NCBI GenBank assembly: GCA_964016885.1 | Contig: OZ024744.1 | Span: 112,964,001 to 113,028,000 of the forward strand | Direction of reading: 5' to 3' | DNA: 64,000 nucleotides | Origin: Eledone cirrhosa | Lineage: Eukaryota | In this document: positions 11,290-64,000 of the stretch, one piece after another | How positions within the stretch are numbered: position 1 is the stretch's first letter | Layout of the letters: every line of letters begins with the position of its first letter | Made by a program: the position numbers and the translations under genes | Notes under the pieces: model-generated | Seen by the model: only the letters and a program-made list of their open reading frames with translations | Database searches by the model: none | Told to the model about the DNA's origin: nothing

Positions 11290-13215
11290 AAACTGGCACT
11301 CTGTGGGAGCTCTTACACACTGATGACCTAGTCCTTACAGCTGAATCCGTGGGAGAGTTAGAGGCAAAAGTTCAAGCATGGAAGAAGAACCTAGAGTTGA
11401 AAGGTCTAAAACTAAACTTAACGAGGTTAAAGTGCTAATAAGTGGGAAAGAGGACAGGAAGTTGATGCCATCAGGAAAATGTCCTTGTTCAATATATCAG
11501 AAAAGGGTGGAAGGAAATTCTATAATGTACACACAGTGTAATATAATAATAATAATGAAATATTGTGTGCAGTGCTCAGGTGCACTACAACTCATCAAAA
11601 AGTGTATGTATAGTACATAGGGTAATGTACAAATGTCAGGAAAATGAACAGTGCATGAGTCATGATATACACATGTGTGCATGTGTATGGAAGGGGTACA
11701 TCGGGTGTAGTTTTGGCGTATTTCGGGAAGCATATATAGACACACAAGAGATGTAGTGGGATTGCAGGTAGGCTAATGGAAAAGATAAACTTTGTATGTG
11801 ACAGATGGACAGGAGAAGTAAGCACTAGGAAAACACATGAAATAGATCCCTTCATCTGTCAGGAAGGCTCCTTAGAAGTTGTTAATAACTTGTGTTACTC
11901 AGGGGATCAAATTAGTAGTGGAGGAAGATGCTCTGATAGTGTGTTAGCCAGGATTAGAAGAAACTGGAAGAAGTTTAGAGAGCTAATACCTCTGTGGCGG
12001 AGGATAGTGTGATAGTGTGATAGCCAGGATTAGAACAGACTAGAAGTTTAGAGAGCTGATACCTCTGTGGAGGAGGATAGTGTGATAGCCAGTATTAGAA
12101 CAGACTGGAAGTTTAGAGAGCTGATACCTCTGTGGAGGAGGATAGTGTGATAGTGTGATAGCCAGTATTAGAACAGACTGGAAGTTTAGAGAGCTGATAC
12201 CTCTGTGGAGGGGGATAGTCTGATAGTGTGATAGCCAGGATTAGAACAGACTAGAAGTTTAGAGAGCTGATACCTCTGTGGATGGGGATAGTCTGATAGT
12301 GTGGTAGCCAGGATTAGAACAGACTAGAAGTTTAGAGAGCTGATACCTCTGTGGAGGGGGATAGTCTGATAGTGTGATAGCCAGGATTAGAACAGACTAG
12401 AAGTTTAGAGAGCTGATACCTCTGTGGAGGGGGATAGTCTGATAGTGTGGTAGCCAGGATTAGAACAGACTAGAAGTTTAGAGAGCTGATACCTCTGTGG
12501 AGGGGGATAGTCTGATAGTGTGATAGCCAGGATTAGAACAGACTAGAAGTTTAGAGAGCTGATACCTCTGTGGAGGGGGATAGTCTGATAGTGTGATAGC
12601 CAGGATTAGAAGAGGCTGGGAAGAAGTTTAGAGAGCTGATACCTCTGTGGAGGGGGGTAGTCTGATAGTGTGATAGCCAGGATTAGAACAGACTAGAAGT
12701 TTAGAGAGCTGATACCTCTGTGGAGGGGGATAGTCTGATAGTGTGATAGCCAGTATTAGAACAGACTAGAAGTTTAGAGAGCTGATACCGTTGCTGACAA
12801 GTAAGATCTCCTCTCTCTGAGTGAAGGGTAGACTGTATGTTGCCTGAGTGTGGCAATGCTACATGGCAGTGAAACATGGGTCTTGACTGCATAAGACTTG
12901 AGAAGGCTAGGAAGTAATGAAGTGAGTATACTCCAATGGATGTGTAATGTTAGTGTGCATGAACAATACAGCGTAAGTGAACTTAGATGTAGTGTGCAAA
13001 AGAGAAAACTGCACTGGTATAGACATGTGATGTGTATGGAAGATAGCAGCTGTATAAAGAAATGCAGAGCAATCCCAGTAGCTGTGACTCATGGGAGAGG
13101 TAGACCCAGGAAGACATGGGATGAGGTAGGGAAGAGCTTAAGAAACTAAGCCTCACAACTGAGATGACAAAGGATTGAGATGGCTGGCGCTATGTTGTGA
13201 TGATGAAGACCCGGC
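11290..13215 (+). mobile_element. Decayed RTE-clade LINE (3' half) with internal tandem expansion
   Basis: Fragmented frames: [42 protein letters not shown]. Confidence 0.88.
11930..12790. repeat. ~73-bp tandem array (~12 copies) inside the RTE LINE
   Basis: CCAGGATTAG recurs at 12308, 12381 and 12454. Confidence 0.95.
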
Positions 13216-13981
13216 CAGAAGTATACAATATAACCTGACTCATTCATGAGCCACTCCCTCCCACTAGTACCCCCCACCATTGCACCCTAGCGGCTATTCT
13301 CTCTACCCCTTGTTCATCCCCCCACCACCACCTCCATCCTTAGCCCCCTCACTACCTCCCTTGCCTGTCTCTCCACCACGACCCTCCCCCTCTCTATCGA
13401 CTATCTGTCTATATACTAATCAGCCACTCCTACCCTTTACTTATTGCCCTGCTAAATCCCCACATACACCTATAATTTCATACCTATCTTCCCCTACCCC
13501 CCTGAACAGAGAGGTCTCTACAGTTGGGTCAATGACCAACAACCTTTCTACTGATGATGTTACAAAAATGCACCTGGTACACTCTGATTGGTCACAGGAT
13601 TGGCACCCCACTGTAAAAACCATGCCTGAAAGTGTTGAAGGGGACCCTTTGTGTCAAATACACAACACCCTCTCTAGTGTTGGTGATCTACACGATAAAC
13701 ACACCCAGTACACATTGTAGTGGTTGGTGATAGGAAGGGTACCGAGTCATAGAAAGCTTGCCAAACATGGGGTTAGGAGGACCTTTTAGTTTGTGTCAAA
13801 AGACATGACAACCTCTGCACTCAATGTGACCAAATGTAAGCAGGATTCAGACCCGTCCTCGGGGCCTGTCTGGGAGGTCTGTAGCCCCACTTCAGTAATG
13901 ACTTGGTCTATGCACATCCATCCAACCCTTGCTATCAGGGAAACTGGATGTTATATAATTATGATGATAGTTAAGATATAT

Positions 13982-14018
<37 letters not shown>

Positions 14019-14640
14019 TAAATAAGACTGTTATTGCTCCAATCAGTCCACAAAACACTCAGCAAACACCCTAAACTGATGACTCCTGCACTCATGACTC
14101 CTGCTAAACCAACAAGTCATCTGCCCAGGGAAGAATGTTTTAAAACGACTCCACATAGTATTAAAATAATATTTAATTGAAGGGGATATATGACAGGACA
14201 GGCCTTAAGGAGTGCTAGAAAGAGCTCCAAGCAAGTCCTATTTAGACAAATTAGGAGTAGAAATATGTTAATTTTAAGAATTTCTATGGAATGAGAGATA
14301 TATATAACCGAGGCCAAACGATATTGATGAATGAAATCAAGGTCTTGGTATGCTTATTACCAAAATCAATAATTGGTGATTGACACTAATTATTGAGATT
14401 GAAGATTTGCATTCTATTTTGGTTTTTAGAAACAGATCTGTCTGTGGAATTGTCAGCCATTATACCATCTTAAAGTATGTATATTTATTTATATATTATT
14501 TGTTCTATATATATGTACAACATACTTAATGTTTCTCAATTGATATATCCTGTTATTTAAACTTTATTATTGATGCTCTGAACTGAAATTCATGGAACTT
14601 TGTACTGAGAAACATTGTTGAAATATATTTTATATGTATT

Positions 14641-15609
14641 AACTAGCTGAATTACCCGCGCCTTGCTGCGTTTCAGACATTTTTTTGTAAGAAAATGATG
14701 ATTGATTTTAAATCAGTGATATAATTTATGGAGAAAAACTCTGCATTTCAATATTTCTCAATGTAAAATGTAATGCATGAAAAATTGGAAAAATATTATT
14801 TTTTGTAATATATCAAATCAAAATTACATTATTAAATCTTATTCTTATTTTGTTTCTTGTAAATAATTTTTTTCAAAATATCAATTCAAAACTTTTGTGA
14901 CTAGGCATCATATCTTGTCATTTACCTATGGTTTAAATTTCATATAAAGCGAGGGGAAAACATTTTCAGTTGGGGTTTGTGCCTCCGAGGAACCCTAATA
15001 GGGGGGTTTAATCCCCCATTAGGGTGTCTTAATATTATTGAAATTTGCTGAAATTTTTTGACTAGGCATCATATCTTGTCATTTACTTATGTTTTAAATT
15101 TCATATAAATCAAAGAGAAAGAATTTTCAGCGGGGGTTTTGTACCCTTGGGGAACCAACTCTTTGATTAAAATGAAATATACATATCCAAGTACCCTGGG
15201 CAATGTAGTTTCAGAATATATATGTTTATGGGGGTCTATCTCCAAAACCATAGGAGGAGTTCGTGAAATCTTGTTCCATTTTTGGCTAAAACTTTCACTA
15301 TAGGGTGTCTGAATATTAATGAAATTTGCTGAAATTTTGTGAATAGGCATCATATGTTGTCATTTACCTATGGTTTAAATTTCATATAAATCGAAGGGAA
15401 AAGATTTTCAGCGGTGGTTTGAGCCCCTGGGGAACCCTTTGATTAAAATGAAATATACTTAAGAAATCAAATGGGCATGAGCCCCACACAAGAGTGTTAA
15501 GTTTCATCAAAATTGGTTTGGTAGTTTTTGAGTTTTAGGTTCACAAACAAATCCACAGACAAACACACACACACACACAGACAGAAATTGCCATTTATGT
15601 ATATAGATT
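14641..15609 (+). mobile_element. Non-autonomous Helitron/Helentron-like element with three internal repeats
   Basis: Starts ACTAGC..ACCCGCG..TTGC, has AAGTTTCATCAAAAT and a CA/CAGA microsatellite, ends TATATAGAT; TAGGCATCATAT...TTAAATTTCATATAAA block occurs three times. Confidence 0.6.
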
Positions 15610-16183: not shown

Positions 16184-16261
<78 letters not shown>

Positions 16262-16397
16262 GTAATGTATATATATAGATATGTGTATATGTATGTATAT
16301 TTTTCTGTGTTTTATCAACTTTTATGTCTTCATTTGAATTAGCCGATAATAATATGTAAAATACAAAACTACTATTGTTTATAATGGTTCATTGTAG

Positions 16398-16517: not shown

Positions 16518-19500
16518 GTATGTTTTTCTTTCTCAACATGAAACCATCTGCAATGAAGGTGTGTGGCCTAAGGGTTAGGGTGTTCAACTCATAATCTTAA
16601 GGTTTTAGATTTGATTCCTTTGACTGGAGAGCAAGACACTTCATTTCATGTTGCTTTTCATGATAGGAGTGGGGCCGCTATCATAAAACACCCTATTGTG
16701 TGAGCTGTAACAACATGATATGACTGGGGTCCCTATCATTAATACATCCAACAAACCTCCTATGAGATACAACTTTGTAGGAGACCAGCTAAATTTACAT
16801 AGGTGTGAACCAACAACAACAAAATGATATGACTGGGATCCCTATCCTTAATACACCCAACAAGCCTCCCTAACCCTCTCAGACTGGGGACCCTCTGTCT
16901 AACTTTGCCCTCCATCCAGGCTCCTGATAAAATAATAAATAATTACATACACAATTCAAGAGTAATGAATACAGACAAACTAATAGAGAGAATCAAGACA
17001 AAGCACAGTAAATGTGTCTAGTCACCCTTCATCTAGATTTACATAATCTCCACCACCCCTATCAGTATTAGCTGTGTGAGGGTCACACTGAATTTGTTCA
17101 CCTGATTGACTACTTTCCTCACCTCTTTCACAAGTTCATTAACTCAGTCACTTTCATTGTCTGTGTAAGGGTGAACTTGTTGAAATTCTTGCTGAACTTT
17201 ATCCATAGAATAAATGTCATCAATAATTTTGTCAAGTGTAAAGAGCGTTGACCTTAATATCGGTATTGTTTATTTCCAGTTGATCGTGATTGTGCAGCTA
17301 ATCCATGTGAAAATGGCGGAACTTGTGTAGTAGGAGCAAATGGAGTGTCTTGTGTTTGCACTCCTGGATCGACTGGAACTTTTTGTGAAACTGGTATGGA
17401 ATATTGTATTATATGGACGTGTTTAGAAACAATGAGTGGAATAGGGGATTTGTGAGAGAAAATCCATGAAGTTATTGACTATAGATAAATAGTCTAAGTA
17501 ATGAGTTTATATAGTCTAGGGTATATATATAGTGTACTGTATACATAGTATAAGTATATGGGTATATATATAGTCTAGGGTATATATAGTGTAAATAATG
17601 GGTATGTATAGTGATAGGGCATATATATATAGTCTAGGGTATATATATATATAGTGTAGGGTATACATAGTATAAGTAAGGGTATATATATAGTCTAGGG
17701 TATATATAGTGTAAATAATGGGTATGTATAGTGATAGGGTATATATATATAGTCTAGGGTATATATATAGTGTACTGTATACATAGTATAAGTATATGGG
17801 TATATATATAGTCTAGGGTATATATAGTGTAAATAATGGGTATGTATAGTGATAGGGCATATATATAGTGTAGGGTATATATATAGTGTACTGTATACAT
17901 AGTATAAGTAAGGGTATATATATAGTGTAGGGTATATATATATATAGTGTAGGGTACACATAATTGTTTCTATTTTTGGCACAAGGCCAGTAAATACCCA
18001 GTACATTACTGGTACTTTATTTTATCGACCCCGTAAGGATGAAAGGCAAAGTTAACCTCGGCGAGATTTGAACTCAGAATGGCAAGGGCCGTAACTCTAT
18101 GCGTCAAAGCATGGCGTCCGACACCTCTACCGATAGGTATACATAGTGAAAGGGTATATATATAGTGTAGGGTGTATATAGTGATAGGGAGTATATAGTG
18201 TAGTGTATATATAGTGATAGGGTAGGGTAAATATAGTGATAGGGTATCTAAACTATAATAAAGTAAGGAGTGCAGGACTGCGTCCAGAATATAATTTTTA
18301 ATCCCGTTTGTAAAATAAGTTGGATTACTTTGAATAAATGAATAAATATTACATAATGTATCTACTAAATTTCGTTATTCTTGATTAAATATAAATAATT
18401 TTCTGGCTTATTTCAAGATTCACTTCTTTAAAATTTTCAAATGTCAACATTTCCAGTGGCGATCACTTAAATAAACATTCATATATTTCCGTCACTAATT
18501 TTCGCCTAATGCAGTTTATATATAATATCATCTTTTTTTATTGTATCATGGATTACGTTACTGATTACATAAGACAGTGTAACACAGTCTTCATTCAATT
18601 TCTGTGTATATTGTCAATTACGATTTTATTTGATGTATCATATCTACATGTATATATACTTGCGTATAATATCAATATACACACTACACATGCTAGCAGG
18701 AAACCACCCGAAGGTTTATATAGTGTAGGGTATATATAGTTATCGGGTATATATAGTCTAAGTAATGGGTATATATAGACTAGGGTATATAAAGTCTAAG
18801 TAACAATATATAAGCCCCCTTAATGGGAAAAAATGGACCTTAGCACCTATAAGTAAGGGTTAAGGTCCATTTAGTCAAAAAATTTTATGAAACTTCAATT
18901 TTCTCATAAATTTCAAATTTTGCTCATTTTTTCTAAATACACATCTGTTTGCTTACCTCTGCTTATCTATGTATAACTTTAAATAATGGAAGAAAATGTG
19001 ACGGATATTTTGATGTAATGGTTACATTCCTGTCTAGCAAGCATGAAGGTGTGGGTTCAAGTTCCACTGGTGCCAAAGTTAACTTAGGGGGCTTGTATAC
19101 CCTATTATTTAGACATTTTACTATAGTAAAGAAAAACTTGATGAAGCTTCTAACTTTCTCATATATATATATCATCATCATCATCATCATCATTTTACAT
19201 CCATTTTTCCTTGCTTGCAAGGGTTGGACGGGTCCTATTCAGCACAGAATCCTTCCACTTGTCACGGACTTTTGTCATCTCCACCATGAGCTTCAGCGAT
19301 CTGAGGTCTGCTCTCACCACCTCGGCCCATGTTTTTCATGGTCTACCTCTACTGTGTCTTCCTTCTGGGATTTCTTGGCACTTCTTTACCCAGCGGTCAT
19401 CCTCCATGCGCATCACATGCCCATACCATCTCAGCCTTCTCTCCTGCACACCACAACTTATCCCTCTTATACCCAGTTTCTTTCTCAACTCGTCTATTCT

Positions 19501-22500
19501 TGGTCGTCCATGCACATTGACATTGCACATCCAACGGAGCATGCTTGCCTCATTTCTCTCCAACTGTCGCATATCCTCTGCAGTTGCTGGCCATGTCTCA
19601 CTACCATGCAGCATCGCGCACCTCACACAGGCATCATATAACCATCCTTTCGTACGCAGGGAGAAACCCTTCTTTGTCAATAGAGGAGGCAGCACCCTAA
19701 ACTTCTTCCAACCCGTCCTTATTCTAGATACTATGGCCTCGGAACACCGCCCCCCACCCATGCTAATCTATCACCTAGGTAACAGAAGCTATCAACCACT
19801 TCAATAGAAGCTACCTGCATTTGAAAAATGTGTCTATCAATGCGACTTCTGTCAAATTTCCCTGTACATCTAGTGCATACGTAGTTTTCCCTACCAGTTC
19901 CCTACCAGTTCCTTTTCTGCATATCGAGCATAGCCATTTCCCTGACAGAATCAGAGTTTTGTCCTGTTTTCTACTCATCAACACTTTTGTCTTAGCTAGG
20001 TTCACTCACAGTCCTCTTGATTCCAACTGCTGTTTCCATAGCCAGAATTTATTCTCTAACTCCTCTACTGATTCTGCTATAAGAACCAGATCGTCAGCAT
20101 AGAGAAGTTCCCATGGACAGCCAGTCTTAAACTCCTCTGTTATGGCTTGGAGGACTACAATGAAAAAGAGTGGGCTGAGGACCGAACCCTGATGTACTCC
20201 TACTTGTATCTGGAATTCCTCACTAAACTCCATTCCTACCCTCACTTTACTGACAGCACCTCTGTACAAAGCTTGCACTGTCCTCACAAGCCATTCCTCA
20301 ACACCTAGTGACCACCAGATGACAAGAGGGTACCCTATCAAAGGCCTTCTCTAGGTTAACAAAAGCTAAGTATAGTGGCTTATTCTTCTCTAAGAACCTC
20401 TCTTGTAATTGTCTCACCAAGAAGAGGGCATCTGTTGTACTCTTCCCAGGCACAAAACCAAACTGCATCTCATCTAATTTGACCCTTTCTCTAATTAGTT
20501 GTGCTAATATCCTTTCTGCCACTTTCATAACCTGATCTATCAGTTTTATACCCCTATAATTGCTCCTCTCCAAAGCATCCCCTTTACCTTTGTAGCAATT
20601 TATGAGAATACTGCTGCACCAGTCTTTGGGTATGACACCACCATATATAGCCTGATTGATGATGCGTGCAACCAGTTTAGTTCCTACTTCTCCTGATCCA
20701 TTCAGCATCTGAGCAACTATTCCTGATGGTCCGGCAGCCTTACCATTTTTCATTTCCCTAATCGCCTCTTGGACCCTATATTCGTCAATCTCAATAGCTG
20801 GTCCCTCTGTTGGATCTACTGAGGGTAATTTCTCTCTCTCCCATTCGTTCTCCACATTCATCAGTCTCTCATAATGACATTACCAGGTCTCCTTTTTCTG
20901 ATCATTCGTGACACTAAGTACACCGGCATCATCCTGGACACATTTATCTCCAACAACATCCTGATTTGCACTAACACACTGCCTTGCAATGCGGAACACC
21001 ACACGTCTCTGATCGGCAAATCTCCTACTCTCTGCCTCCCTGCGTGCTAAGTAAACCTGACGTCTAGCTTCTCTCTTAGTGTCTCTATATCCTTCTCTAC
21101 TCCCACCCTTTTTCCAAGTATTCCATGCTAGTCTTTTGTCTCTAATGGCCTTATCTACTGTGCTGTTCCACCACCAGGTCACACTCTGTCTGGTTGGGAG
21201 CTCTGCTCCAGCCACAAGTCTCTTCAGTAGCCTGCAGTAAGTTATCACATGAGAAATTCCAGTTATCATCTATGTCATACGACTCTAAATCGTCTTTGTC
21301 ACCTTTTAACATCCATTTTCCACACAGGCATGAGTTAGACGAGTTGTCCTGTTGTGAGACAAGTCAAATCAGGTGACCGTGTCTTGCTCATACAGAACTG
21401 ATTTGGGCTTGGTTTCTACAGCTGGATACCCGTCCTAATGTCAGCCACACTTACAGTGAGTACTGGATGCTCATGTCAGTACAGAGTGTACTGGGTGTTT
21501 ATTTGTTGTATCACCAGCATGTGCATCTAACATGGTCGAGAGCTTTTAGTAATTCCAGTAGCATATACATGTGTGTGTGTATACACATGTCTGTGTGTAT
21601 ACACATGTCTGTGTGTATACATATGTCTGTGTGTATACACATGTCTGTGTGTATACACATGTCTGTGTGTATACACATGTCTGTGTGTATACACATGTCT
21701 GTGTGTATACACATGTCTGTGTATACACACAGAGTTTGGGCCCCAGAGTTTTATTGGTACTTTAAAGATCAAGCTGATCTTGGCAGTATTTTAAATCAGA
21801 ATGTAGAAAGTTGTAAATAAATACTGCACAGCATTGTCTGATGCTCTACTGATTCTGCCATGGTGGAATAAGGTACTGAAAGGAGGTGTTTGTTGATCGA
21901 TGTAGCTTACTTATCAATGGTAAAGAAAATGAGAAAATCGTAAAGTATGCAGACTTGAGAATAGATGTCAAGAGAATGTGGAATATGAAAGTAAGAGTGG
22001 TACCAATTGTAATTGGGTTGGTGACAGAAAACCGCCAGTAAAAGCTTGAAAGAATTGGAATCAGTCCCAGCAATTCAACATTGCAGAAAACAACACTTTT
22101 TCCACACTTGCATAGTTTAGATGGGTTGTCACGCTATGAAACAAGTCAGGTCAAGTGACCACATCTTGCTTATAGAGGATGGTAACGTGCTTATATAATT
22201 GAAGGAATAATAATAATAATAATAATGTAATTATCTTTTCCCCAGATATTGATGAATGTGCATCAAACCCATGCAGGAATAACGGTTGGTGTAAAAACCT
22301 AATAAATGGTTACAAATGCCATTGTGACCCTAGTTGGTATGGGTCCCACTGCCAACTGGATGCCAATGAGTGCAACGAGGGCACTTGTGTGAATGCAATC
22401 TCCTGTCGAAATCTTCAAGGTAGCTATGAATGTCAGTGCCAAGCAGGTTGGACAGGGAAAAACTGTGATATGAGTAAGTACACATTTTCAATAGGTCCAT

Positions 22501-22573
22501 TAACGAATATTAAAGTTTATAACTTTTACACTTCTCAGTGTATATATGTGTCTATATCTTTCTCTCTCCACCC

Positions 22574-22604
<31 letters not shown>

Positions 22605-23264: not shown

Positions 23265-23346
<82 letters not shown>

Positions 23347-24385: not shown

Positions 24386-24443
<58 letters not shown>

Positions 24444-53100: not shown

Positions 53101-56100
53101 CCCGTCACTTGTGGGAGGTGTACCTGTCACTTGTGGGAGATGTACCTGTCACTTGTGGAAGATGTACCTGTCACTTGTGGGAGGTGTACCTGTCACTTGT
53201 GGGAGGTGTACCTGTCACTTGTGGAAGGTGTACCTGTCACTTGTGGGAGGTGTACCTGTCACTTGTGGGAGATGTACCTGTCACTTGTGGGAGGTGTACC
53301 TGTCACTTGTGGGAGGTGTACCTGTCACTTGTGGGAGGTGTACCTGTCACTTGTGGGAGGTGTACCTGTCACTTGTGGGAGGTGTACCTGTCACTTGTGG
53401 GAGGTGTACCCGTCACTTGTGGGAGATGTACCTGTCACTTGTGGGAGATGTACCTGTCACTTGTGAGAGATGTACCTCTCACTTGTGGGAGGTGTACCTG
53501 TCACTTGTGGGAGGTGTACCTGTCACTTGTGGGAGGTGTACCTGTCACTTGTGGGAGGTGTACCTGTCACTTGTGGGAGGTGTACCTGTCACTTGTGGGA
53601 GATGTACCTTTCACTTGTGGGAGATGTAACTGTCACTTGTGGGAGATGTACCTGTCACTTGTGGGAGGTGTACCTGTCACTTGTGGGAGATGTACCTGTC
53701 AATTATGGGAGATATCATAATCATAGTACTACAATCAGTGTCACAGTTGTGTGAGGGAGGGCGTCCAGCCATAGAAACCATATCTAAAAATAAGGGTTTG
53801 TGGAACCCTTTAGATGTATTGAGGTCATTACAGCCTCCCTAGTGTTGGTGAACTACATTATAAACACATGCAGTATACTCTAAAGTTGTTGGTGATAGGA
53901 AGGGCATCCAGCCATAAAAAACCTGCCAAAGGGATTGGAAGACCCTTTAGTTGTGTCAAAGACATGGCAAACTCCCTTGTGCTGGTGCCACAATAAAATG
54001 CACTCAGTAGAACGCGAGACCATATGTGTGATGCAGACCGCTGGACTGTGGGGGGGGGGGGTTAGCAGCCCCGCTTCAGTACTGTGAAAACTCCAACCCT
54101 TGCTTAAAGGGAAAGAGGACATTAAATGATGTTGTTCTTAAAAAATATCCTTATATTTTCTTTCAAAGCTTCCTGGCATAGTTGTGATTCCAACCCCTGT
54201 CAGAATGAAGGAACTTGTGTCAATTCAGGTGACAGCTTCACCTGCTTATGTAAAGAGGGATTTGAAGGTGATGTATGCGAGACAAACATTAATGATTGCA
54301 AACCATTTCCTTGGTAACTATTACCTGTCTTTCTGTCTTTCTACTCATATAAGATGTTGCTGTTATTTTCTCTTTAGGTACAGAAGCACCCGAAACCACC
54401 CCTGGTTCTATGATACAAAACTGTTTGTTTTAAATTGTTTATATTTATCTAAAAACCTTCCATCATTATTTTATGAACCTTTGTTAAGTTATGTTCCAAA
54501 CATCAATAATGAGAAAGTTTTGATGAGAAAATATTACTAAATCCCTTCCAATTACAGTGTAACACAATTTTTGTCCTTGGGTAGCAACTATTATTTTTTA
54601 TTTGCTTATGCCTAGAAAGTATGAAAAATGGCTAATATTTCCTTAACACTTTGCTTTTATGACCATGATAATATTTCTAGATTTACCTAATCCCATTGGG
54701 AAAACTGCCAAATGTGAACATTCTTGTTCAAGTAAAATTGGAATAAAATGATATACGATTCAAAAAGTATCATTTATTTATTCTAGGATTTTACAAAAAA
54801 CTTAGAAGTGAGTGGGTTTTCGGGATTTACACTTAAGCTGCATACTGCTTTCACGAATCAGTCCCCATATATAGTCGCCCATCATGTTATGATATCCCAG
54901 TGAAAGCGCTCACCTTGCTCTTCAGAGTATGCTCCCATGTTACCCTTCAGTTTATGAAGATAAGTGGCAAGGATATGTACTTTGAGGGATATCCTGCAAA
55001 CCATTTTTCTGAAGTTCTTCACTAGGGTCTCTGCAAGCTCCACATAATTTTCGACCTTGCGATTCTCCAGAAAACCCCGAACCACTGCAACAAAGCTTTT
55101 TCATGCTGCCTCCTCTGTCTTAGTGAACTTCTTGGGGAATTCCTTGAACTCCATGATCTTCATGATTTGTGGTCTGATAAAGACACTGGTTTTCACTTTT
55201 GTCTCAGACAGCTTTGGGAAGAAGTCTCAAAGGTACTTCATGCCTGCCGACTCCTTATCTAGAGCTGTGACAAACTGTTTCACAAGGCGCAAAATGAAGT
55301 GGTGGGAATAATATCTTCCGAGAATCAACCAGTGACTGTCCAAATCACAAAATCAAAGTTACAGGAGAATAATAGTCTTTTCCTGTGTTTTCTAGGCAGT
55401 AAATAACACTTATTGACCAAAGACAAAAAAAAAAGAGTAAAACTTTTGTTACATAGTGTTATTGATGAAATTCAAAATAATTTGATAATCAGTTTTTCAT
55501 TAGAAATATGATGATGAAAGGGTAAATTACATATACCAATTGTTATTTCTATTGTTGTTGGATTGGTAGAACCAGTAGAGCATTGAACAACATTCTTTGC
55601 TGTATTTAGTAATGACTTTCTTCATTGAGTTCAAATACTGCCGAGGTCAACTTTACCTTTCATCATTCAGGAGTTGATAAAATAAAGTACCAGTAACACA
55701 CTGAGGTTGATTTAATCGACTTTCCCCTCCCCCACAAATTGCTATCCTTGTGCCTATAGTAGAAACCATTATTATTCAGTATTGGTAGAGGGTCGGACGC
55801 CATGCTTTGACGCATAGAGTTACGGCCCTTGCCATTCTGAGTTCAAATCCCGCCGAGGTTAACTTTGCCTTTCATCCTTACGGGGGTCGATAACATAAAG
55901 TACCAGTAATACACTGGGATAATTGCTGGCCTTGTGCCTAACGTAGAAACAATTATTTTTATGAATTTGATATCTCAGTCATTGATGTTATTTAACCAAA
56001 AAATGTTCCCAAATGAACATCAAGTCGCTACCCGCTGCCTCAGATATTCAGGACATATCTCGGAGTCCTTGCTGTTCCCAGTAGGCATGCCTTTTGAACT

Positions 56101-59100
56101 GTTCCAAAAAAGGGGCCTGTACTAATGTTCTTTAACCAGTCTTGGAAGCCCTTTGAGACAGTACCTAGTGTTCCTCTGATGATGGGGACCACCTTGATCT
56201 CATGATAGTCCCAAATATTTTTCAGTTCCCACTAGATTTTGGTACCAGTTAATTTTCTCCTTTTCTTGTACTCTTGTGTCAATTTTTATTATTATTATTA
56301 TTGTTGTTGTTGTTGTTGTTGTTTCAGTTATAATGGTGGTCAATGTATCGATGGCGTAAACTGGTACTTGTGTGAATGTAGCAAAGGTTTTGATGGACCA
56401 AACTGCAGAATAAGTAAGTGATTTAGTTCTAACACTTTACAGAGTGAACTGGGTATATTTTATGACACTAGCACTACCACTTTACAGAGTGAACTGGGTA
56501 TAATTTATGACTCTAGCACTACCACTTTACAGAGTGTACTGGGTGTATTTTACTATGGCACCAACACTACCACTTTACAGAGTGTACTGGCTGTATTTGA
56601 TCATGACACCTGCACTACCACTTTACAGAGTGTACTGGGTGTATTATATCATGACACCAACACTACCACTTTACAGAGTGTACTGGCTGTATTTGATCAT
56701 GACACCTGCACTACCATTTTACAGAGTGTACTGGGTGTATTTTATCATGGCACCAACACTACCACTTTACAGAGTGTACTGGGTGTATTTTATGACACTA
56801 GCACTACCACTTTACAGAGTGTACTGGGTGTATTTTACCATGGCACCAACACTACCACTTTACAGAGTGTACTGGGTGTATTTTATGACACTAGCACTAC
56901 CACTTTACAGAGTGTACTGGGTGTATTTTACCATGGCACCAACACTACCACTTTACAGAGTGTACTGGGTGTATTTTATGACACTAGCACTACCACTTTA
57001 CAGAGTGTACTGGGTGTATTTTATGACACTAGCACTACCACTTTACAGAGTGTACTGGGTGTATTTTACCATGGCACCAACACTACCACTTTACAGAGTG
57101 AACTGGGTATATTTTATGACACTAGCACTACCACTTTACAGAGTGTACTGGGTGTATTTTATGACACTAGCACTACCACTTTACAGAGTGTACTGGGTGT
57201 ATTTTACCATGGCACCAACACTACCACTTTACAGAGTGTACTGGGTGTATTTGATCATGACACCAGCACTACCACTTTACAGAGTGTACTGGGTGTATTT
57301 TACCATGGCACCAACACTACCACTTTACAGAGTGTACTGGGTGTATTTTACCATGGCACCAACACTACCACTTTACAGAGTGTACTGGGTGTATTTTATG
57401 ACACCAGCACTACCACTTTACAGAGTGTACTCGGTGTATTTTACCATGGCACCAACACTACCACTTTACAGAGTGTACTGGGTGTATTTGATCATGATAC
57501 CTGCACTACCACTTTACAGTGGTGGTGGTGGTGCTGTTCTCAAACACCCCTTCCAGCGGGTCCTGTCAGAAGCAACCATCTCTAACTGTTCCAGCTGGAT
57601 CCCCAAGCAAGACCAACTTAGCTCATGGATGTTCTCAAACCAACTTGTTCAGGGTCTACCTCTGGGTCTCTTGCTAGTTGGTTTTGTCCAGCGATTCTTT
57701 CCTGAGACATTCTAACCACATGTCATAGTATCACAGCTGTGATCTCTCAATTCAGAGATTCTTTCCTGAGACATTCTAACCACATGTCCATAGTATCAGA
57801 GCTGTGATCTCTCAATTCAGAGATTCTTTCCCGAGACATTCTAACTACATGTCTGTAGTATCACAGCTGTGATCTCTCAATTCAGAGATTCTTTCCTGAG
57901 ACATTCTAACCACATGTACATAGTATCAGAGTTGTGATCTCTCAATTCAGAGATTCTTTCCTCAGATATTATAACCACATGTACATAGTATCAGAGCTGT
58001 GATCTCTCAATTCAGAGATTCTTTCCTGAGACATTCTAACTACATGTACATAGTATCAGAGCTGTGATCTCTCAATTCAGAGATTCTTTCCTGAGACATT
58101 CTAACCACATGTACATAGTATCAGAGCTGTGATCTCTCAATTCAGAGATTCTTTCCTCAGATATTATAACCACATGTACATAGTATCAGAGCTGTGATCT
58201 CTCAATTCAGAGATTCTTTCCTGAGACATTCTAACTACATGTACATAGTATCAGAGCTGTGATCTCTCAATTCAGAGATTCTTTCCTGAGACATTCTAAC
58301 CACATGTCATAGTATCAGAGCTGTGATCTCTCAATTCAGAGATTCTTTCCTGTGATACACACATACATCCACACACACACTCACATTGACTCACACACGC
58401 ACACACTCACACATATTAAACATAGCACAACATCCCACGCTGTTTATTAAAGCTATCAATGTTTTCCAAATTTCAGATATACAAGAATGCACTTCAAATC
58501 CTTGTGCTTTTGGCAGTACTTGCATTGATGACATTGCTAGTTATAAGTGTATTTGTCCACCAGGAAGAACTGGAGAGCAATGTGAAAATGGTTAGTCATT
58601 TCTAGAAATTTATTAACCATTGTTTTAATTTATTTTAATTCCTTGATTTTTTTTTAATACGTCAAACATTCTAAAACGAATGTTCAATAAGTAATGAGGA
58701 CATTTCCAGAGAGACATTATTTATTCTCATAAGCTTACAAAACTTTCTCTACTTCAAAATAAGGACTTTTCACACGTACACACTTGCACAGGCCTTGTCC
58801 CAACTCATGGAAGACTCCCTCCCAGTTCTGTTTCTACAGTACCATCAGGACACTCACCAGTACCTCCTTCAGCTCCTATGTTGACTTGAATCTGATTCCC
58901 ATGTGGCTGTCTTTCATGTGTGGGAACAGGAAGAAGTCACAAGGAACCAAGTCAGGTCGTTAAGGTGGGTGTGGTACCACTTTCATCCCCTTGTTGGTCA
59001 TCCAAGTGGTCATTCAGCATTAACTTGTGACATGGAGTACTATATGGAGATGGTGTAGGACAGAACAAAGAAGAGACACAAAATAACAAGTTAGTCTCTG

Positions 59101-62100
59101 AGGAGATCACAGAATGTGTGACGAAAGAGCTTTAACAATAAATAAACAACCATCCCATTATTAAACCAACCAACTGGAAATTTATAATATGAGTGAAAAC
59201 CACCAGGTGTGTGTGTGTTTTTATTGGCAGCATGACCCTCCCAAAGTATAACAATATCTGTTTCAACACATGTGTTCAGATAAGAAATTTTGCAAAACAA
59301 ATTCATAACCCCAGTAGCAGTGAGTAGGGAGGTGGTCTGGAGACCAAGAACACCAGAAGTCTCCACTGTTACAGGTTTAACAAGACAGTCCACTTCATGT
59401 GGCTCACTCCTGTAGGTAGCCAACACCACCCCAGTAGCAGTGAGTAGGGAGGTGGTTTGGAGAACAAGAACACCATAAGTCTCTACTGTTACAGGTTTAA
59501 CAAGACAGTCCACTTCATGTGACTCGCTCCTGTAGGTAGCCAACACCACCCCAGTAGCAGTGAGTAGGGAGGTGGTCTGGAGACCAAGAACACCAGAAGT
59601 CTCCACTGTTACAGGTTTAACAAGACAGTCCACTTCATGTGACTCACTCCTGTAGGTAGCCAACACCACCCCAGTAGCAGTGAGTGGGGAGGTGGTCTGG
59701 AGACCAAGAACACCAGAAGTCTACACTGTTACAGGTTTAACAAGACAGTCCACTTCATGTGGCTCACTCCTGTAGGTAGCCAACACCACCCCAGTAGCAG
59801 TGAGTAGGGAGGTGGTCTGGAGACCAAGAACACCAGAAGTCTCCACTGTTAGAGGTTTAACAAGACAGTCCACTTCATGTGACTCACTCCTGTAGGTAGC
59901 CAACACCACCCCAGTAGCAGTGAGTAGGGAGGTGGTCTGGAGACTAAGAACACCAGAAGTCTCCACTGTTACAGGTTTAACAAGACAGTCCACTTCATGT
60001 GACTCACTCCTGTAGGTAGCCAACACCACCCCAGTAACAGTGAGTAGGGAGGTGGTCTGGAGACCAAGAACACCAGAAGTCTCTACTGTTACAGGTTTAA
60101 CAAGACAGTCCACTTCATGTGGCTCACTCCTGTAGGTAGCCAACACCACCCCAGTAGCAGTGAGTAGGGAGGTGGTCTGGAGACCAAGAACACCAGAAGT
60201 CTCTACTGTTACAGGTTTAACAAGACAGTCCACTTCATGTGGCTCACTCCTGTAGGTAGCCAACACCACCCCAGTAGCAGTGAGTAGGGAGGTGGTCTGG
60301 AGACCAAGAACACCAGAAGTCTCCACTGTTACAGGTTTAACAAGACAGTCCACTTCATGTGGCTCACTCCTGTAGGTAGCCAACACCACCCCAGTAGCAG
60401 TGAGTAGGGAGGTGGTCTGGAGACCAAGAACACCAGAAGTCTCCACTGTTACAGGTTTAACAAGACAGTCCACTTCATGTGACTCACTCCTGTAGGTAGC
60501 CAACACCACCCCAGTAGCAGTGAGTAGGGAGGTGGTCTGGAGACCAAGAACACCAGAAGTCTCTACTGTTACAGGTTTAACAAGACAGTCCACTTCATGT
60601 GACTCACTCCTGTAGGTAGCCAACACCACCCCAGTAGCAGTGAGTAGGGAGGTGGTCTGGAGACCAAGAACACCAGAAGTCTCCACTGTTACAGGTTTAA
60701 CAAGACAGTCCACTTCATGTGGCTCACTCCTGTAGGTAGCCAACACCACCCCAGTAGCAGCGACTAGGGAGGTGGTCTGGAGACCAAGAACACCAGAAGT
60801 CTCCACTGTTACAGGTTTAACAAGACAGTCCACTTCATGTGACTCACTCCTGTAGGTAGCCAACACAACCCCAGTAGCAGTGAGTAGGGAGGTGGTCTGG
60901 TGACCAAGAACACCAGAAGTCTACACTGTTACAGGTTTAACAAGACAGTCCACTTCATGTGGCTCACTCCTGTAGGTAGCCAACACCACCCCAGTAGCAG
61001 TGAGTAGGGAGGTGGTCTGGAGACCAAGAACACCAGAAGTCTCCACTGTTACAGGTTTAACAAGACAGTCCACTTCATGTGGCTCACTCCTGTAGGTAGC
61101 CAACACCACCCCAGTAGCAGCGACTAGGGAGGTGGTCTGGAGACCAAGAACACCAGAAGTCTCCACTGTTACAGGTTTAACAAGACAGTCCACTTCATGT
61201 GGTTACTCCTGTAGGTAGCCAACACCACCCCAGTAGCAGTGAGTAGGGAGGTGGTCTGGAGACCAAGAACACCAGAAGTCTCTACTGTTACAGGTTTAAC
61301 AAGACAGTCCACTTCATGTGACTCACTCCTGTAGGTAGCCAACACCACCCCAGTAGCAGTGAGTAGGGAGGTGGTCTGGAGACCAAGAACACCAGAAGTC
61401 TTCATGGTTACAGGTTTAACAAGACAGTCCACTTCATGTGGCTCACTCCTGTAGGTAGCCAACACCACCCCAGTAGCAGTGAGTAGGGAGGTGGTCTGGA
61501 GACCAAGAACACCAGAAGTCTCCACTGTTACAGGTTTAACAAGACAGTCCACTTCATGTGGCTCACTCCTGTAGGTAGCCAACACCACCCCAGTAGCAGC
61601 GACTAGGGAGGTGGTCTGGAGACCAAGAACACCAGAAGTCTCCACTGTTACACCTTTGACCACAAACCTATGAAGAGCGACCAATCCATTTGTGTGTTTC
61701 CACTTGCCCCTCTAACATTCTCCCACTTATCTTTATGTCTTTTACCTCTTCTCATCTTTTCAACACTCTACTTTTATTGGTGTTGTATCTAACAAAATTG
61801 ACCAAATCCTTTTTGTTGTTGTCCTTAACAAATATTCCAGCTATTAGTGATTCTAATACTCCACTTAGGTTAATTGGTTTAGTTATATTATGTTTGGAGA
61901 GGGTCATGTTGTCCTAAAATAGTAAAACACACTCACTGTTTGGTTTGGTTTTTTCTGATTCAACTGGAACATGTCTTTAATTTCTCTTTGTCTCAATCTC
62001 CATTTCAGTCAACTTTCCTGCTTTGATCCTTCTTTCTTAATCCTTTCTTCCTCATACTGCTTTGATTCTCCTCTGATCCTTCCTCTCTTGATTCTTCTTC

Positions 62101-63421
62101 CTTGATCCTTCTTTCTTAATCCTTTCTTCCTCATACTGCTTTGATTCTCCTCTGATCCCTCCTCTCTTGATTCTTCTTCCTTGATCCTTCTTTCTTAATC
62201 CTTTCTGCCTCATACTGCTTTGATTCTCCTTTGATCCTTCCTCTCTTGATTCTTCTTCCTTGATCCTTCTTTCTTAATCCTTTCTTCCTCATACTGCTTT
62301 GATTCTCCTCTGATCCTTCCTCTCTTGATTCTTCTTCCTTGATCCTTCTTTCTTAATCCTTTCTTCCTCATACTGCTTTGATTCTCCTCTGATCCTTCCT
62401 CTCTTGATTCTTCTTCCTTGATCCTTCTTTCTTAATCCTTTCTTCCTCATACTGCTTTGATTCTCCTCTGATCCTTCCTCTCTTGATTCTTCTTCCTTGA
62501 TCCTTCTTTCTTAATCCTTTCTTCCTCATACTGCTTTGATTCTCCTCTGATCCTTCCTCTCTTGATTCTTCTTCCTTGATCCTTCTTTCTTAATCCTTTC
62601 TTCCTCATACTGCTTTGATTCTCCTCTGATCCTTCCTCTCTTGATTCTTCTTCCTTGATCCTTCTTTCTTAATCCTTTCTTCTTCATACTGCTTTGATTC
62701 TCCTTCCCCGATCCTTCCTTCTCCATCCTTCCTTCCCTCATTCTTGATCCTAACATTTGTTCTGAGTTACTAGAATTTGTTCTCATTAGAATTTCAACTT
62801 CTCTGTCTTTTTGTAAGAGTTACCATATTTTTGGTGCCAAACTCAACCTTTAATTCAATATAACATTTTATAACTCATTTCTTTGTTTTTATTTATTTTT
62901 TACAGTTATTGGACATTTTCCTTCTCCTAATTCCTGTATTTTTAAGCAACATATCTACCCCGACAAAAGTGGATGGCATCACGAGTGTAATTCTTGTCAC
63001 TGTAACAATGGTCACATTTATTGTACGAAGGTAAGGAGTTTATGATAAAGGTTTGATAAGAAGATTTAGGGGGTGGGGTGGAGGTGTTATTGTTTCGTTT
63101 TTGTTGTTACTTTTGTCAATATTTATTATGATGAGGTTGTTTTTACATTTGAAGGTTTGGTGTGGACCCAAAAATTGCTTGAGTCATCCAAATGTGTCTG
63201 AGCCTGTGGATATATGTGCACGTGACGAAACTTGTGTTGTTAAAACAATGCAAACATGCTTTACACCACCCTGTTTGCCCTGGGGTCATTGTAAACATAT
63301 ATCCAGAATAGAAGATTCTGCTCCCAGAGATATACAAACCAACTGTATACCAAATGAAGCAAAAATCAGCAATAACTGTGCAAAGATCAGCCTTCTCTTT
63401 GATAAATCTCAGATGCCGAAA
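16398..63421 (+). CDS. JAG1: Jagged/Serrate-family Notch ligand, partial spliced CDS (15 exons; EGF3-16, vWFC, juxtamembrane region); 5' and 3' exons outside window
   Basis: Hand-spliced exons with GT-AG ends and consistent phases give a stop-free frame of about 692 codons. It contains [15 protein letters not shown] (Jagged EGF3), the interrupted EGF10 (VIDHCTISV...[10 protein letters not shown]), [17 protein letters not shown], and v[23 protein letters not shown]. This architecture fits Jagged/Serrate rather than Delta or Notch. Confidence 0.95.
17280..17393 (+). CDS. JAG1: Jagged exon, EGF4 (114 bp): [38 protein letters not shown]
   Basis: tttccag|TTGAT...GAAACTG|gtatgg; six-Cys EGF; phase 1-1. 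Confidence 0.93.
17505..17958. repeat. TA-rich complex minisatellite (TAGGGTATATATATAGT variants), interrupted by a SINE
   Basis: Read directly; the motif resumes at ~18140-18250. Confidence 0.85.
17960..18135 (-). mobile_element. tRNA-derived SINE (~180 bp family; also ~8000-8087, 10015-10140, 27240-27430, 34447-34625, 34712-34900, 36480-36615, 55560-55770, 55778-55957)
   Basis: B box GAGTTCAAATCC(C), shared body TTTGCCTTTCATCCTTACGGGGTCGATAAAATAAAGTACCAGT, tail GAAACAATTAT. Confidence 0.88.
18812..19093. mobile_element. MITE-like element with terminal inverted repeats
   Basis: AAGCCCCCT...AGGGGGCTT termini with subterminal TAGCACC/GGTGCCA; partial inverted copy at ~36350-36468. Confidence 0.55.
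19170..21270 (-). mobile_element. RTE-clade LINE reverse transcriptase pseudogene (5'-truncated, frameshifted)
   Basis: Consecutive minus frames: [62 protein letters not shown]; (GAT)n tail. Confidence 0.95.
21568..21730. repeat. 18-bp minisatellite (GTCTGTGTGTATACACAT), ~9 copies
   Basis: Read directly. Confidence 0.95.
21880..22100 (+). mobile_element. Fragment of R4/Dong-like LINE restriction-like endonuclease region
   Basis: Translates [32 protein letters not shown] (EKxxKYxDL...W...VVPxVIG motif). Confidence 0.7.
22246..22473 (+). CDS. JAG1: Jagged exon, EGF5-6 (228 bp): [16 protein letters not shown]...[41 protein letters not shown]
   Basis: ttttccccag|ATATT...GATATGA|gtaagt; calcium-binding EGF consensus. 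Confidence 0.95.
24707..26225. mobile_element. ~1.5 kb element with long (~250 bp) inverted terminal arms, within (TA)n
   Basis: ~24800-25035 is the reverse complement of ~25985-26220. Confidence 0.8.
27620..27895 (+). mobile_element. Fossil CRE-like non-LTR retrotransposon restriction-like endonuclease domain
   Basis: [30 protein letters not shown] / CDTFS / AEERKITKY...[10 protein letters not shown], matching the RPD...WD...KxxKY...FxPxxxETxG pattern. Confidence 0.7.
28102..30045. repeat. 47-bp tandem array (~41 copies) inside an RTE LINE 3' fragment spanning ~28065-30441
   Basis: GTGCTAC at 28142 and 28189; LINE sequence resumes after the array and ends in (GAT)n. Confidence 0.96.
30939..31406 (+). 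mobile_element. Young 5'-truncated RTE LINE 3' end
   Basis: Open 149-aa frame ([31 protein letters not shown]) followed by (GAT)n; same family as 19170-21270. Confidence 0.93.
31441..31487 (+). CDS. JAG1: Jagged 47-bp micro-exon, first half of EGF7: [16 protein letters not shown]
   Basis: tctcttccag|ACATC...TGTGTT|gtgagt; phase 1-0, exactly what is needed to join the flanking exons. Confidence 0.92.
32485..32938. mobile_element. Fold-back copy of a dispersed Penelope/retrozyme-like repeat (other copies ~7935-8340, 10740-10900, 38115-38390, 59055-59303, 61880-62010)
   Basis: ~150-bp inverted arms; shared GGTCATGTTGCCAATAA...TTTCACTTCAATTTATT block. Confidence 0.75.
32736..32780 (+). ncRNA. 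Putative minimal type-I hammerhead ribozyme in a dispersed repeat
   Basis: AGTCA-CTGAAGA-G-GTCACA(GAGTG)TGTGAC-GAAA-GGAC-TA-TGACT: stem I AGTCA/TGACT, core CUGANGA and GAAA, NUH = CUA. Confidence 0.6.
33191..33364 (+). CDS. JAG1: Jagged exon, EGF7 second half + EGF8 (174 bp): [10 protein letters not shown]...GYVGLQCQ
   Basis: tttgcag|AACCTT...TGTCAG|gtatga; phase 0-0. Confidence 0.95.
35237..35925. repeat. ~42-bp tandem array (~16 copies) with internal hairpin GGGGTCAC..GTGACCCC
   Basis: Read directly. Confidence 0.95.
36806..36956 (+). CDS. JAG1: Jagged exon, EGF9 + start of interrupted EGF10 (151 bp): [11 protein letters not shown]...[10 protein letters not shown]
   Basis: tcaacag|ATTGCT...TGTGATG|gtttgt; phase 0-1. 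Confidence 0.92.
37072..37192. repeat. 24-bp tandem repeat (5 copies) resembling the first 24 nt of the downstream exon
   Basis: GTTATTGACCCTTGTATCATATCT versus exon start GTTATTGACCACTGTACCATATCT. Confidence 0.93.
37202..37366 (+). CDS. JAG1: Jagged exon, EGF10 with Jagged/Serrate-specific insertion (165 bp): [32 protein letters not shown]...YCHE
   Basis: gttaacag|TTATT...CACGAAA|gtaaga; phase 1-1. Confidence 0.93.
37550..38075 (+). mobile_element. Decayed RTE LINE endonuclease-RT linker fragment
   Basis: [24 protein letters not shown], homologous to [24 protein letters not shown] in the 21 kb copy. Confidence 0.8.
38511..38624 (+). CDS. JAG1: Jagged exon, EGF11 (114 bp): [38 protein letters not shown]
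   Basis: catttcag|ACATA...CCGCA|gtgagt. Confidence 0.95.
38887..44925. repeat. 80-bp tandem satellite, ~75 copies
   Basis: Exact 80-bp period with no indels until the end. Confidence 0.98.
45141..50562. repeat. 52-bp tandem satellite, ~104 copies
   Basis: CACACAG at 45141, 45193 and onward. Confidence 0.98.
50662..50775 (+). CDS. JAG1: Jagged exon, EGF12 (114 bp): [38 protein letters not shown]
   Basis: gtttcag|ATATA...ATTCAA|gtaagg. Confidence 0.95.
51015..52175. repeat. 29-bp minisatellite (GGAGGGGAATATTACACCTGTTTCACTTT), ~40 copies; short sister array at ~31755-31890
   Basis: Read directly. Confidence 0.97.
52559..52672 (+). CDS. JAG1: Jagged exon, EGF13 (114 bp): [38 protein letters not shown]
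   Basis: polypyrimidine tract, ctaaccag|AAGTC...CAATTAG|gtgaga. Confidence 0.94.
   Translation, partial: KSTNVILSHVPMEEVVRIWEHHFNVFVQMDSMEMPVN
52718..53712. repeat. 22-bp minisatellite (GAGATGTACCTGTCACTTGTGG), ~45 copies
   Basis: Read directly. Confidence 0.97.
54169..54313 (+). CDS. JAG1: Jagged exon, EGF14 + start of EGF15 (145 bp): [11 protein letters not shown]...NINDCKPFP(C)
   Basis: tttcaaag|CTTCC...CCTTG|gtaact; phase 1-2. Confidence 0.93.
54553..55458 (-). mobile_element. Internally deleted DNA transposon fossil, probably Chapaev3/CMC-like
   Basis: Minus frame FLENRK..NY...SLKVHIL...[15 protein letters not shown]; imperfect TIRs TACAGTGTAACA / TGTTACATAGTG. Superfamily assignment is from recalled motif similarity. 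Confidence 0.65.
56020..56270 (-). mobile_element. R4/Dong-like LINE C-terminal fragment
   Basis: Minus frame [12 protein letters not shown]...[17 protein letters not shown]. Confidence 0.65.
56328..56413 (+). CDS. JAG1: Jagged exon, rest of EGF15 (86 bp): (C)[28 protein letters not shown]
   Basis: (gtt)n tttcag|TTATA...GAATAA|gtaagt; phase 2-1. Confidence 0.95.
56433..57519. repeat. 45/48-bp minisatellite, ~23 copies
   Basis: CACTACCACTTTACAGAGTGTACTGGGTGTATTTTA core; both unit lengths are multiples of 3. Confidence 0.96.
57692..58351. repeat. 65-bp tandem array (~10 copies); same unit again at 63870-64000
   Basis: GAGATT at 57885 and 57950. Confidence 0.95.
58477..58590 (+). CDS. JAG1: Jagged exon, EGF16 (114 bp): [38 protein letters not shown]
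   Basis: tttcag|ATATA...AAAATG|gttagt. Confidence 0.95.
58760..59030 (-). mobile_element. Mariner transposase fossil fragment
   Basis: Minus strand [20 protein letters not shown], a decayed HPPYSPDLAPCDFFLF motif. Confidence 0.8.
59308..61652. repeat. 120-bp tandem satellite, ~19.5 copies
   Basis: 120-bp period; 40-aa repeat frame on the minus strand. Confidence 0.97.
62017..62705. repeat. 79-bp pyrimidine-rich tandem array, ~8.5 copies
   Basis: CATACTGC at 62053 and 62132. Confidence 0.95.
62906..63030 (+). CDS. JAG1: Jagged exon, vWFC first part (125 bp): [42 protein letters not shown]
   Basis: ttttacag|TTATT...ACGAAG|gtaagg; W-x3-C-x2-C-x-C-x2-G-x3-C vWFC motif. Confidence 0.94.
63155..63421 (+). 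CDS. JAG1: Jagged exon, vWFC second part + juxtamembrane region (267 bp): VWCGPKNCL...[15 protein letters not shown]
   Basis: tttgaag|GTTTGG...CCGAAA|gtaagt; CFTPPC and [10 protein letters not shown] motifs. Confidence 0.93.
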
Positions 63422-63467
63422 GTAAGTTGTAATATAATTTACTTATATATTAACATTCCCTCTGCCT

Positions 63468-63546
<79 letters not shown>
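63468..63546. repeat. (CAT)n microsatellite, probably an expanded minus-strand RTE/SINE tail
   Basis: Followed by TTTTACGTC, as in other RTE 3' ends in this window. Confidence 0.85.
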
Positions 63547-63547
<1 letters not shown>

Positions 63548-64000
63548 TTTACGTCTTATATAAATACATACTATGAAGAAGAAAGCTTGATGTGGTTATT
63601 ACTGGCACTATATATAGACATCTATTACTGAATGTCTTCTTCTTCACTTATTCCTTGGAAAGTTGCCCCAAATATTCCCTCCAGCAGGTCCTGTCTGAAG
63701 CAACTGACTCCAAATGATCCGGCCTGATCCCCAAGCGAGACCAGCCAAGCTCATGGATATTATCCAACCATCTTGCTCGGGATCTACTCCTGGGTCTCCT
63801 GCTGGTTGGTTTGCTCGTAAAATCTGTCCAGCAACTCTGATACTACAGACATGTGGTTAGAATGTCTAAACATTCTAACCACATGTACATAGTATCAGAG
63901 CTGTGATCTCTCAATTCAGAGATTCTTTCCTGAGACATTCTAACCACATGTCATAGTATCAGAGCTGTGATCTCTCAATACAGAGATTCTTTCCTGAGAC

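Follow-up and report, generated by a model that had tools for sequence, protein, structure and literature searches.

Results

Tandem arrays in the Jagged gene

The stretch of DNA analysed here (the window) comprises 64,000 nucleotides at C28:112,964,001-113,028,000 of the 3.0-Gb genome of Eledone cirrhosa, on a contig of 136.5 Mb whose end is 23.5 Mb away, and carries a Jagged/Serrate-like gene whose introns are rich in tandem arrays; the origin and spread of these arrays are the subject of this report. The gene occupies positions 16399-63423 of the forward strand (the strand of all features below except where noted) and extends past both bounds. Fifteen exons, encoding epidermal growth factor repeats and a cysteine-rich region, were recognised by eye; the last is 94% identical to a protein of Octopus bimaculoides that has Jagged-type domains, and its identity to a jagged-1b-like protein of Argonauta is 75%.

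Tandem Repeats Finder (TRF) assigns 44.1% of the window, and 46.7% of positions 11930-64000, to tandem repeats. Homogeneous arrays (period of at least 15, at least four copies, at least 85% match, at least 200 bp) make up 39.8% of the window, and units within an array match each other at 89-98%. The initial annotation, made from the letters of the window alone, had described very homogeneous arrays filling about 40% of it, and this is borne out, every array that it named being present. In the Jagged introns 21,883 of 44,923 bases (48.7%) are arrays, with arrays confined to this locus contributing 17.6% and arrays shared with other loci 29.8% of the intron. Within positions 11930-64000 the single-locus arrays (22, 24, 43, 52 and 79 bp) total 7,902 bp and the multi-locus arrays (29, 47, 48, 65, 73, 80 and 120 bp) 14,378 bp; about one third of the array DNA is thus specific to this site, and the remainder is likely to have been copied in from other chromosome-end sites.

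The units of 73, 47 and 65 bp are internal pieces of long interspersed nuclear elements (LINEs) of a type that we take to be RTE from the motifs YGSETW and RPRKTW seen in the copies; related copies give RVT_1 matches, and single-copy hosts elsewhere cross the array edges. The 52- and 48-bp units match repeats that are presumably short interspersed nuclear elements (SINEs). With the 43-, 120- and 80-bp units included, eight units are internal segments of dispersed elements that are single-copy elsewhere; no such source was found for the 26- and 79-bp units. It had been claimed that at least eight arrays match a LINE, a SINE or a Jagged exon boundary, and this stood for the LINE and SINE-like units and for two exon edges (24 and 22 bp), the 120-bp unit coming from a dispersed element. 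The accompanying claim that the host sequence often enters on one side and resumes on the other was correct for the 73-bp, 47-bp (only about 35 nt on the left), 43-bp and second 65-bp arrays. The host is seen on one side only for the first 65-bp array (left), the 120-bp array, the long 29-bp array and the 52-bp array (left, the SINE head ending a few bases past the array), and on neither side of the 80-, 48- and 79-bp arrays. In a survey of other arrays with a period of at least 20 (one TA-type row left out; reference of only 0.64 Mb), six of 16 distinct arrays have matches among non-array repeats at other loci that were fetched, and a seventh matches its own locus; this does not establish that most arrays genome-wide derive from transposable elements (TEs).

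Arrays inside LINE copies

Comparison loci for the 65-, 73-, 80-, 120- and 48-bp units were the ~40 candidates that most resembled the unit in the window. The 73-bp array (12 copies, 11918-12789) interrupts a decayed RTE-type LINE copy (11300-13250) and is common to three other loci on C28. One of these, a twin 325 kb away (L016), is identical to the window beside the array, with 30/30 bases matching to its left and 77/77 aligned bases to its right, about 107 flanking bases in total, and then falls to 70-90%, the background level. Six single-copy controls at the same site share 17-29 of 28-30 bases per comparable bin, gapped bins aside, and never all of them. At the level of the letters, this pattern is what we read as the signature of a conversion tract.

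The 65-bp unit forms an RTE-derived satellite found throughout the genome, whose junction has 16,325 exact matches, eight of them in the window. The first array (57689-58352) has its host on the left; the second (63832-64000) opens with an inverted piece of its own unit (63832-63867) and runs 892 bp past the window, where the host LINE resumes. Eight of nine arrays of the family with a visible end run into the host LINE at the matching position. The units are 95-100% identical (mean 98.5%, 45 pairs from 10 stretches), whereas alignable flanks (14 pairs on the left, 10 on the right) are on average 78% identical, and the hosts of arrays are no more alike than the hosts of single copies (78% in both). 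The same holds for the 73-bp family, with units 95-100% identical between loci and host copies about 78% alike, and the 120-bp units fall in the same range of identity. Near-identical units at distant loci, set in older and diverged seed repeats, are therefore found for the 65-, 73- and 120-bp families and in part for the 47-bp family. At two diagnostic sites of the 65-bp unit, both A letters occur in the majority of units in 12/12 stretches (10 arrays) and in none of the 19 single-copy hosts that align without gaps (30 fetched). An inverted unit piece is also present at the end of the twin of the 120-bp array; such pieces at two junctions are what template switching would leave. On C28 at 114.23-114.28 Mb, some 50 kb of the 65-bp unit continues at both ends as host LINE. 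The same LINE carries a 123-bp duplication in two copies 1 Mb apart (L242 and L244, C1 at 17.1 and 18.1 Mb) and one of the same period in L078.

The 47-bp array (28102-30045) lies in an RTE copy and belongs to a distal family found across the genome, with a TGTG repeat at its breakpoint. Its junction has 931 exact genome matches (control, 0), and among the first 100 matches listed on C1-C3 all 21 junction-bearing loci lie within 32 Mb of an end. A less biased set was drawn up through the host entry motif, which has 48 matches in all; 30 of the copies so found were used. On C1-C4 the site was arrayed in none of 12 interior copies, more than 50 Mb from an end, a cut-off chosen after inspection of the data, and in 7 of 12 distal ones (p=0.005). 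Since all 12 interior copies are single, the parent element is single-copy at this site, and a 47-bp duplication already present in it is ruled out. The junction state GA is found in 7/7 arrays and 0/21 single-copy hosts (p=8e-7). At the first site, most units have G in six of the seven arrays, and one of the 21 hosts has it. A second duplication, of 98 bp, starts at the same RTE site and forms local clusters (L214, L215/L152, L216 and L153 at C2 395.5-402.9 Mb; C26 at 6.29 and 7.15 Mb), and L215 and L216 have unusual letters in common.

Dispersed families

The 80-bp array (38880-44925) is of SINE-like origin and, at 6 kb, the largest in positions 11930-64000. Its unit is 99-100% identical across nine stretches, and arrays of it lie at six further C28 sites, on C20 and on C673 among the matches listed (39 of 534 candidates scored). 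The flanks are mostly unrelated, with two of 36 left and six of 36 right pairs aligning and none of these with the window. About 140 kb of this unit is present at C28:116.33-116.47 Mb. The 45/48-bp array (56429-57519) is a piece of a SINE-like element with a native repeat of ~48 bp and again represents a genome-wide family in unrelated flanks. Arrays of both families begin and end at varied phases. The 48- and 29-bp units form arrays on many contigs, the latter represented here by an internal repeat of a dispersed element at 31761-31886 and by 40 copies, an expanded element-borne repeat, at 51016-52174; in 10/10 fetched loci, picked with an array-containing query, 3-20 copies lie inside the same element.

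The unit of the 120-bp array (59308-61652) matches a dispersed element that natively contains an imperfect internal repeat of ~122 bp. It is identical at three sites, the window, a twin 24 kb downstream (L040) and a locus on C282 (L041), and the flanks of the three do not align. Pfam gave no family at a useful level for the hosts of the 120- and 43-bp units.

Arrays confined to this locus

An array found at a single locus beside its own source describes the 22-, 24-, 43- and 52-bp arrays; the 79- and 26-bp arrays are single-locus with no element source identified, and the 29-, 47-, 48-, 65-, 73-, 80- and 120-bp arrays are not confined to this locus. The 24-bp array (37073-37190) repeats the opening bases of the exon at 37202 and lies upstream of the acceptor in use. 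The unit matches the exon start at 21/24 positions, a score reached by none of 1999 background windows, and elsewhere in the genome finds only weak matches (71-76%). Within 37066-37202, a duplicate acceptor context (TTAACAG) precedes the array; splicing to it would insert five 8-residue repeats in frame, followed by a frameshift. The 22-bp array (52719-53711) resembles the exon end and splice donor at ~52656-52677 (16/22 positions, equalled by 9 of 1999 background windows), and its genome count equals its local count (44/44). Contigs of run X4 behave as spliced; a single one crosses the 24-bp array, joining 36956 to 37202 and so using the downstream acceptor, and it also skips the intron with the 22-bp array. 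Both exon-edge arrays are therefore intronic. In contigs from organism B (X5) the exon at 37202 is covered with no readable junction, and one unrelated short match falls at the 22-bp array; the RAD runs (X6) yielded nothing further.

The 52-bp array (45141-50562) lies where a SINE-like element has its head, with CACAC-AG repeats on either side; all 95 genome matches to its pattern are local (95/95), and variant units recur every 416 bp (8 units), forming a higher-order repeat. For the 43-bp array (35240-35926) a genome query returned two candidates, the window and a single-copy host (L113) that crosses both edges, which rules out a widespread element-borne repeat. The 79-bp array (62023-62704) is built of pyrimidine-rich 14-bp subunits, with 9/9 genome matches inside the window. 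These five arrays are supported as good cases of birth in situ, the 22- and 24-bp ones from single-copy exon edges. At the start of the window, positions 1-3740 are the end of a 14.5-kb array of 26 bp that, at its own far left, interrupts an RTE copy; 291/291 genome matches lie inside this one array, and no seed was found for it, the flanking LINE not extending into the array.

Breakpoints and chromosomal distribution

Short repeats are found at the breakpoints: TGTG at the LINE site that gave both the 47- and the 98-bp product, CAG for the 65-bp, CACAC-AG for the 52-bp and AACTT for the 43-bp unit. The 48- and 120-bp units derive from native imperfect internal repeats. These assignments come from direct reading without a chance control; for the 73-bp unit the repeat is only ~2 nt. 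Births thus coincide with short direct or native internal repeats and are sequence-dependent.

Homogeneous arrays cover 31-100% of 10-kb samples at 6/6 positions in C28 101-135 Mb and 0-13% at 12/13 positions in C28 10-94 Mb. On C1, coverage is 0% at 10/12 positions between 70 and 400 Mb, and 49-100% in four of eight samples from the ends. Array richness is a regional property of chromosome ends, and the window is ordinary for its region. One locus on C1 (L196, at 280 Mb) has GC-rich 227-bp arrays in regularly spaced blocks.

Discussion

Birth and probable transfer of the arrays

We think it probable that the arrays are minisatellites made from pieces of LINEs, SINE-like elements and exon edges, that about a third of the array DNA was born here, and that the rest was copied in from other loci, often into the matching position of another old copy of the parent LINE. 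At birth, slippage or repair would duplicate either a segment with a short direct repeat on its two sides or an imperfect internal repeat native to the element; the repeats are seen in the sequence. Spread would follow when an old LINE copy suffers a break and an array-bearing paralogue serves as the template for its repair, through ectopic gene conversion or template switching; the host would then seem to run into the array and out of it again in phase. Unequal exchange and conversion could then lengthen and homogenise the arrays. The 80- and 48-bp families also land in unrelated sequence, possibly by way of extrachromosomal circles, and the concentration at chromosome ends presumably reflects higher recombination there. 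Units that are identical across diverged hosts, the tract beside the 73-bp twin and the diagnostic letters of the 47- and 65-bp families together argue for transfer into homologous LINE copies, which is likely to have proceeded by ectopic conversion or template switching. We hold evenly balanced the stronger proposal of satellite homing, in which a minisatellite would be born once in a LINE, the thousands of decayed copies of that LINE would serve as landing pads, and ectopic repair among chromosome ends would bring the totals to megabases. If it is true, each array looks born in place, and several families in parallel inflate introns without transposition.

The initial annotation had seen these arrays as mostly local births by a process indifferent to sequence and as a main driver of intron growth. 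Birth in situ stands for three of its eight units (22, 24 and 52 bp), to which the 43- and 79-bp arrays, not named before, may be added, each at a single locus; the other five (47, 48, 65, 73 and 120 bp) are arrayed elsewhere. Mostly local birth could not be upheld, as the largest array in that range, the 80-bp one, belongs to a dispersed family and is flanked by host sequence neither to its left nor to its right. Genome-wide families in unrelated flanks, the finding that by the annotation's own account would refute its view, are represented by the multi-locus 48- and 80-bp arrays, and in a modified form by the 65-, 73-, 47- and 120-bp families, where one and the same unit sits in separate old copies of its host. 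Amplification independent of sequence is not supported, given births at short direct or native internal repeats and the one LINE site that gave both 47- and 98-bp arrays. Arrays do make up a main part of intron in this gene, as part of the regional character of chromosome ends.

Several observations weigh against transfer. Choosing comparison loci by similarity of their units inflates unit identity, and it weakens the test by diagnostic letters in the 65-bp family. None of 30 hosts picked by entry motif on C1 0-48 Mb carries the 65-bp array, so landing must be rare per copy. In the 47-bp family, where the division into interior and distal copies was itself made post hoc, one of the seven arrays has GA in only 1/29 junctions and another has GA in its own entry. 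At 18 junction-picked 47-bp loci the similarity of the free 28 nt has a median of 86% and a mean of 80.5%, and that of the flanks is 82% (80 of 153 flank pairs align); replacement of the whole unit is unsupported by this comparison, and we have narrowed the claim to an imported junction state. With the unit only slightly above its flanks, the family looks like a mosaic of host and imported sequence and not like clean replacement. Finally, local birth does happen repeatedly as well: the 120-bp element has expanded separately, at 72-83% identity, with periods of 108, 112, 120 and 122.

If every array had been born in place, repeatedly and at microhomology hot spots, common units would reflect the same breakpoints and the choice of similar matches. 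The TGTG, CAG and AACTT repeats, the two products of a single LINE site, the independent periods of the 120-bp element, the small unit excess in the junction-picked 47-bp set and the hot spots reported in human TEs (Ahmed and Liang, PMC3389668) all fit such a history. We nevertheless consider it unlikely, because it leaves unexplained the identical tracts flanking the 73-bp twin, diagnostic letters that single-copy hosts lack, identical 120- and 80-bp units in unrelated flanks, and the clustering of close relatives within a few megabases. Carriage of the arrays by the element in retrotransposition, or by old segmental duplication, with later homogenisation between loci, would suit the 29-bp repeat, which sits in multiple copies in the same flanks at every locus fetched, and the 47-bp dimers, which differ internally at several sites (~6/47 in L224). 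The 12 single interior copies of the 47-bp host subfamily, the 30 hosts empty of the 65-bp array, and flanks that are no more alike around arrays than around single copies make this quite improbable as a general account.

Spread mainly by excised circles or rolling-circle concatemers, re-inserting with guidance by homology where possible, corresponds to one of the two routes that PMC7403614 puts forward for Rsp-like satellites and agrees with the varied phases and unrelated flanks of the 80- and 48-bp arrays; a circle of units alone would not bring the ~107 identical flanking bases of the 73-bp twin, and as the main route we judge it very unlikely. It differs from repair out of an array-bearing paralogue in the donor only, and both may act. 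That the arrays were inflated or invented by assembly seems to us scarcely credible. The reads examined span no whole long array; however, the contigs of X1, which is probably the source sample of the assembly, are identical to the window into the 43-, 24- and 22-bp array junctions, units carry variants private to their locus, and the summed depth of the 22-bp unit (~160 against 3.2 in the flank, a weak measure) is near the value for 45 copies.

Relation to known systems

Minisatellites derived from TEs are known (Ahmed and Liang 2012, PMC3389668; reviewed in PMC9659126, which cites the direct-repeat model of Haber and Louis). The arrays described here resemble them in that units are internal to SINEs and LINEs, some breakpoints have short direct repeats, and hot spots exist within an element (PMC3389668, PMC9659126). 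As far as those accounts describe them, such minisatellites arise anew with or after every insertion, or travel with the element in transposition, whereas here one unit recurs in different old hosts that lack its letters, and the arrays extend over kilobases and exceed 1 Mb in sum. A young satellite using an older abundant repeat as a homology seed recalls the spread of Rsp-like into 1.688 arrays in Drosophila (Sproul et al. 2020, PMC7403614), for which interlocus conversion, template switching or circles have been proposed. Unlike that case, the seed in the Jagged region is the parent retrotransposon of the satellite and not another satellite, no hybrid junction is needed, local birth is mimicked, and several unrelated families lie in one gene. 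The maize arrays CRM1TR and CRM4TR (Sharma et al. 2013, PMC3648361) are likewise derived from retrotransposons and shaped by gene conversion, and the authors suggest that the second locus may have arisen by conversion into CRM1 sequence. Those arrays come from long terminal repeat elements, are centromeric, occupy two loci and are homogenised locally; ours are non-LTR, distal and multi-locus, and are argued from a tract and diagnostic letters.

Human minisatellites cluster subtelomerically. The arrays here are similarly concentrated near chromosome ends, at a density that is far higher (the 31-100% of distal C28).

TE-derived minisatellites, birth at direct repeats and homology-seeded spread of satellites are thus already known separately. 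What the present sequences appear to add is base-level evidence, from several families in one gene, that copies of the parent LINE receive arrays and so mimic local birth. Judged by titles and the opening of abstracts, and with subscription papers largely outside the search, the literature gave no octopus report of such arrays and none on conversion into retrotransposon copies. The origin of a unit can now be separated from the birthplace of its array, two things that surveys of TE overlap merge, and if arrays do move into homologous TE copies, then counts of independent births and of 'hot spots' are overestimates. Because host and donor letters can be distinguished at single bases, these families offer a direct test of how satellites reach new loci. 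The setting matters as well: tandem DNA fills about half of the introns of a developmental gene near a chromosome end, and two arrays are built from splice-site sequence, yet are spliced out.

Other features of the locus

C28 (136.5 Mb) is numbered after the 22-Mb C27, an order that suggests a sex chromosome placed last, in which case Jagged would be sex-linked; the text of PMC10925132 on the Z chromosome, in the part available, makes no mention of jagged. Younger RTE-type copies with long open stretches and RVT_1 matches are present at 19181-21300 (reverse strand) and 30931-31406 (forward strand). A TA-rich compound array (57-59/116 bp) follows directly after an exon at 17508-17944. Palindromic or inverted non-autonomous elements, present in several near-identical copies and often bounded by TA runs, lie at 6066-6373, 23098-24710, 24793-26224 and 32543-32938.

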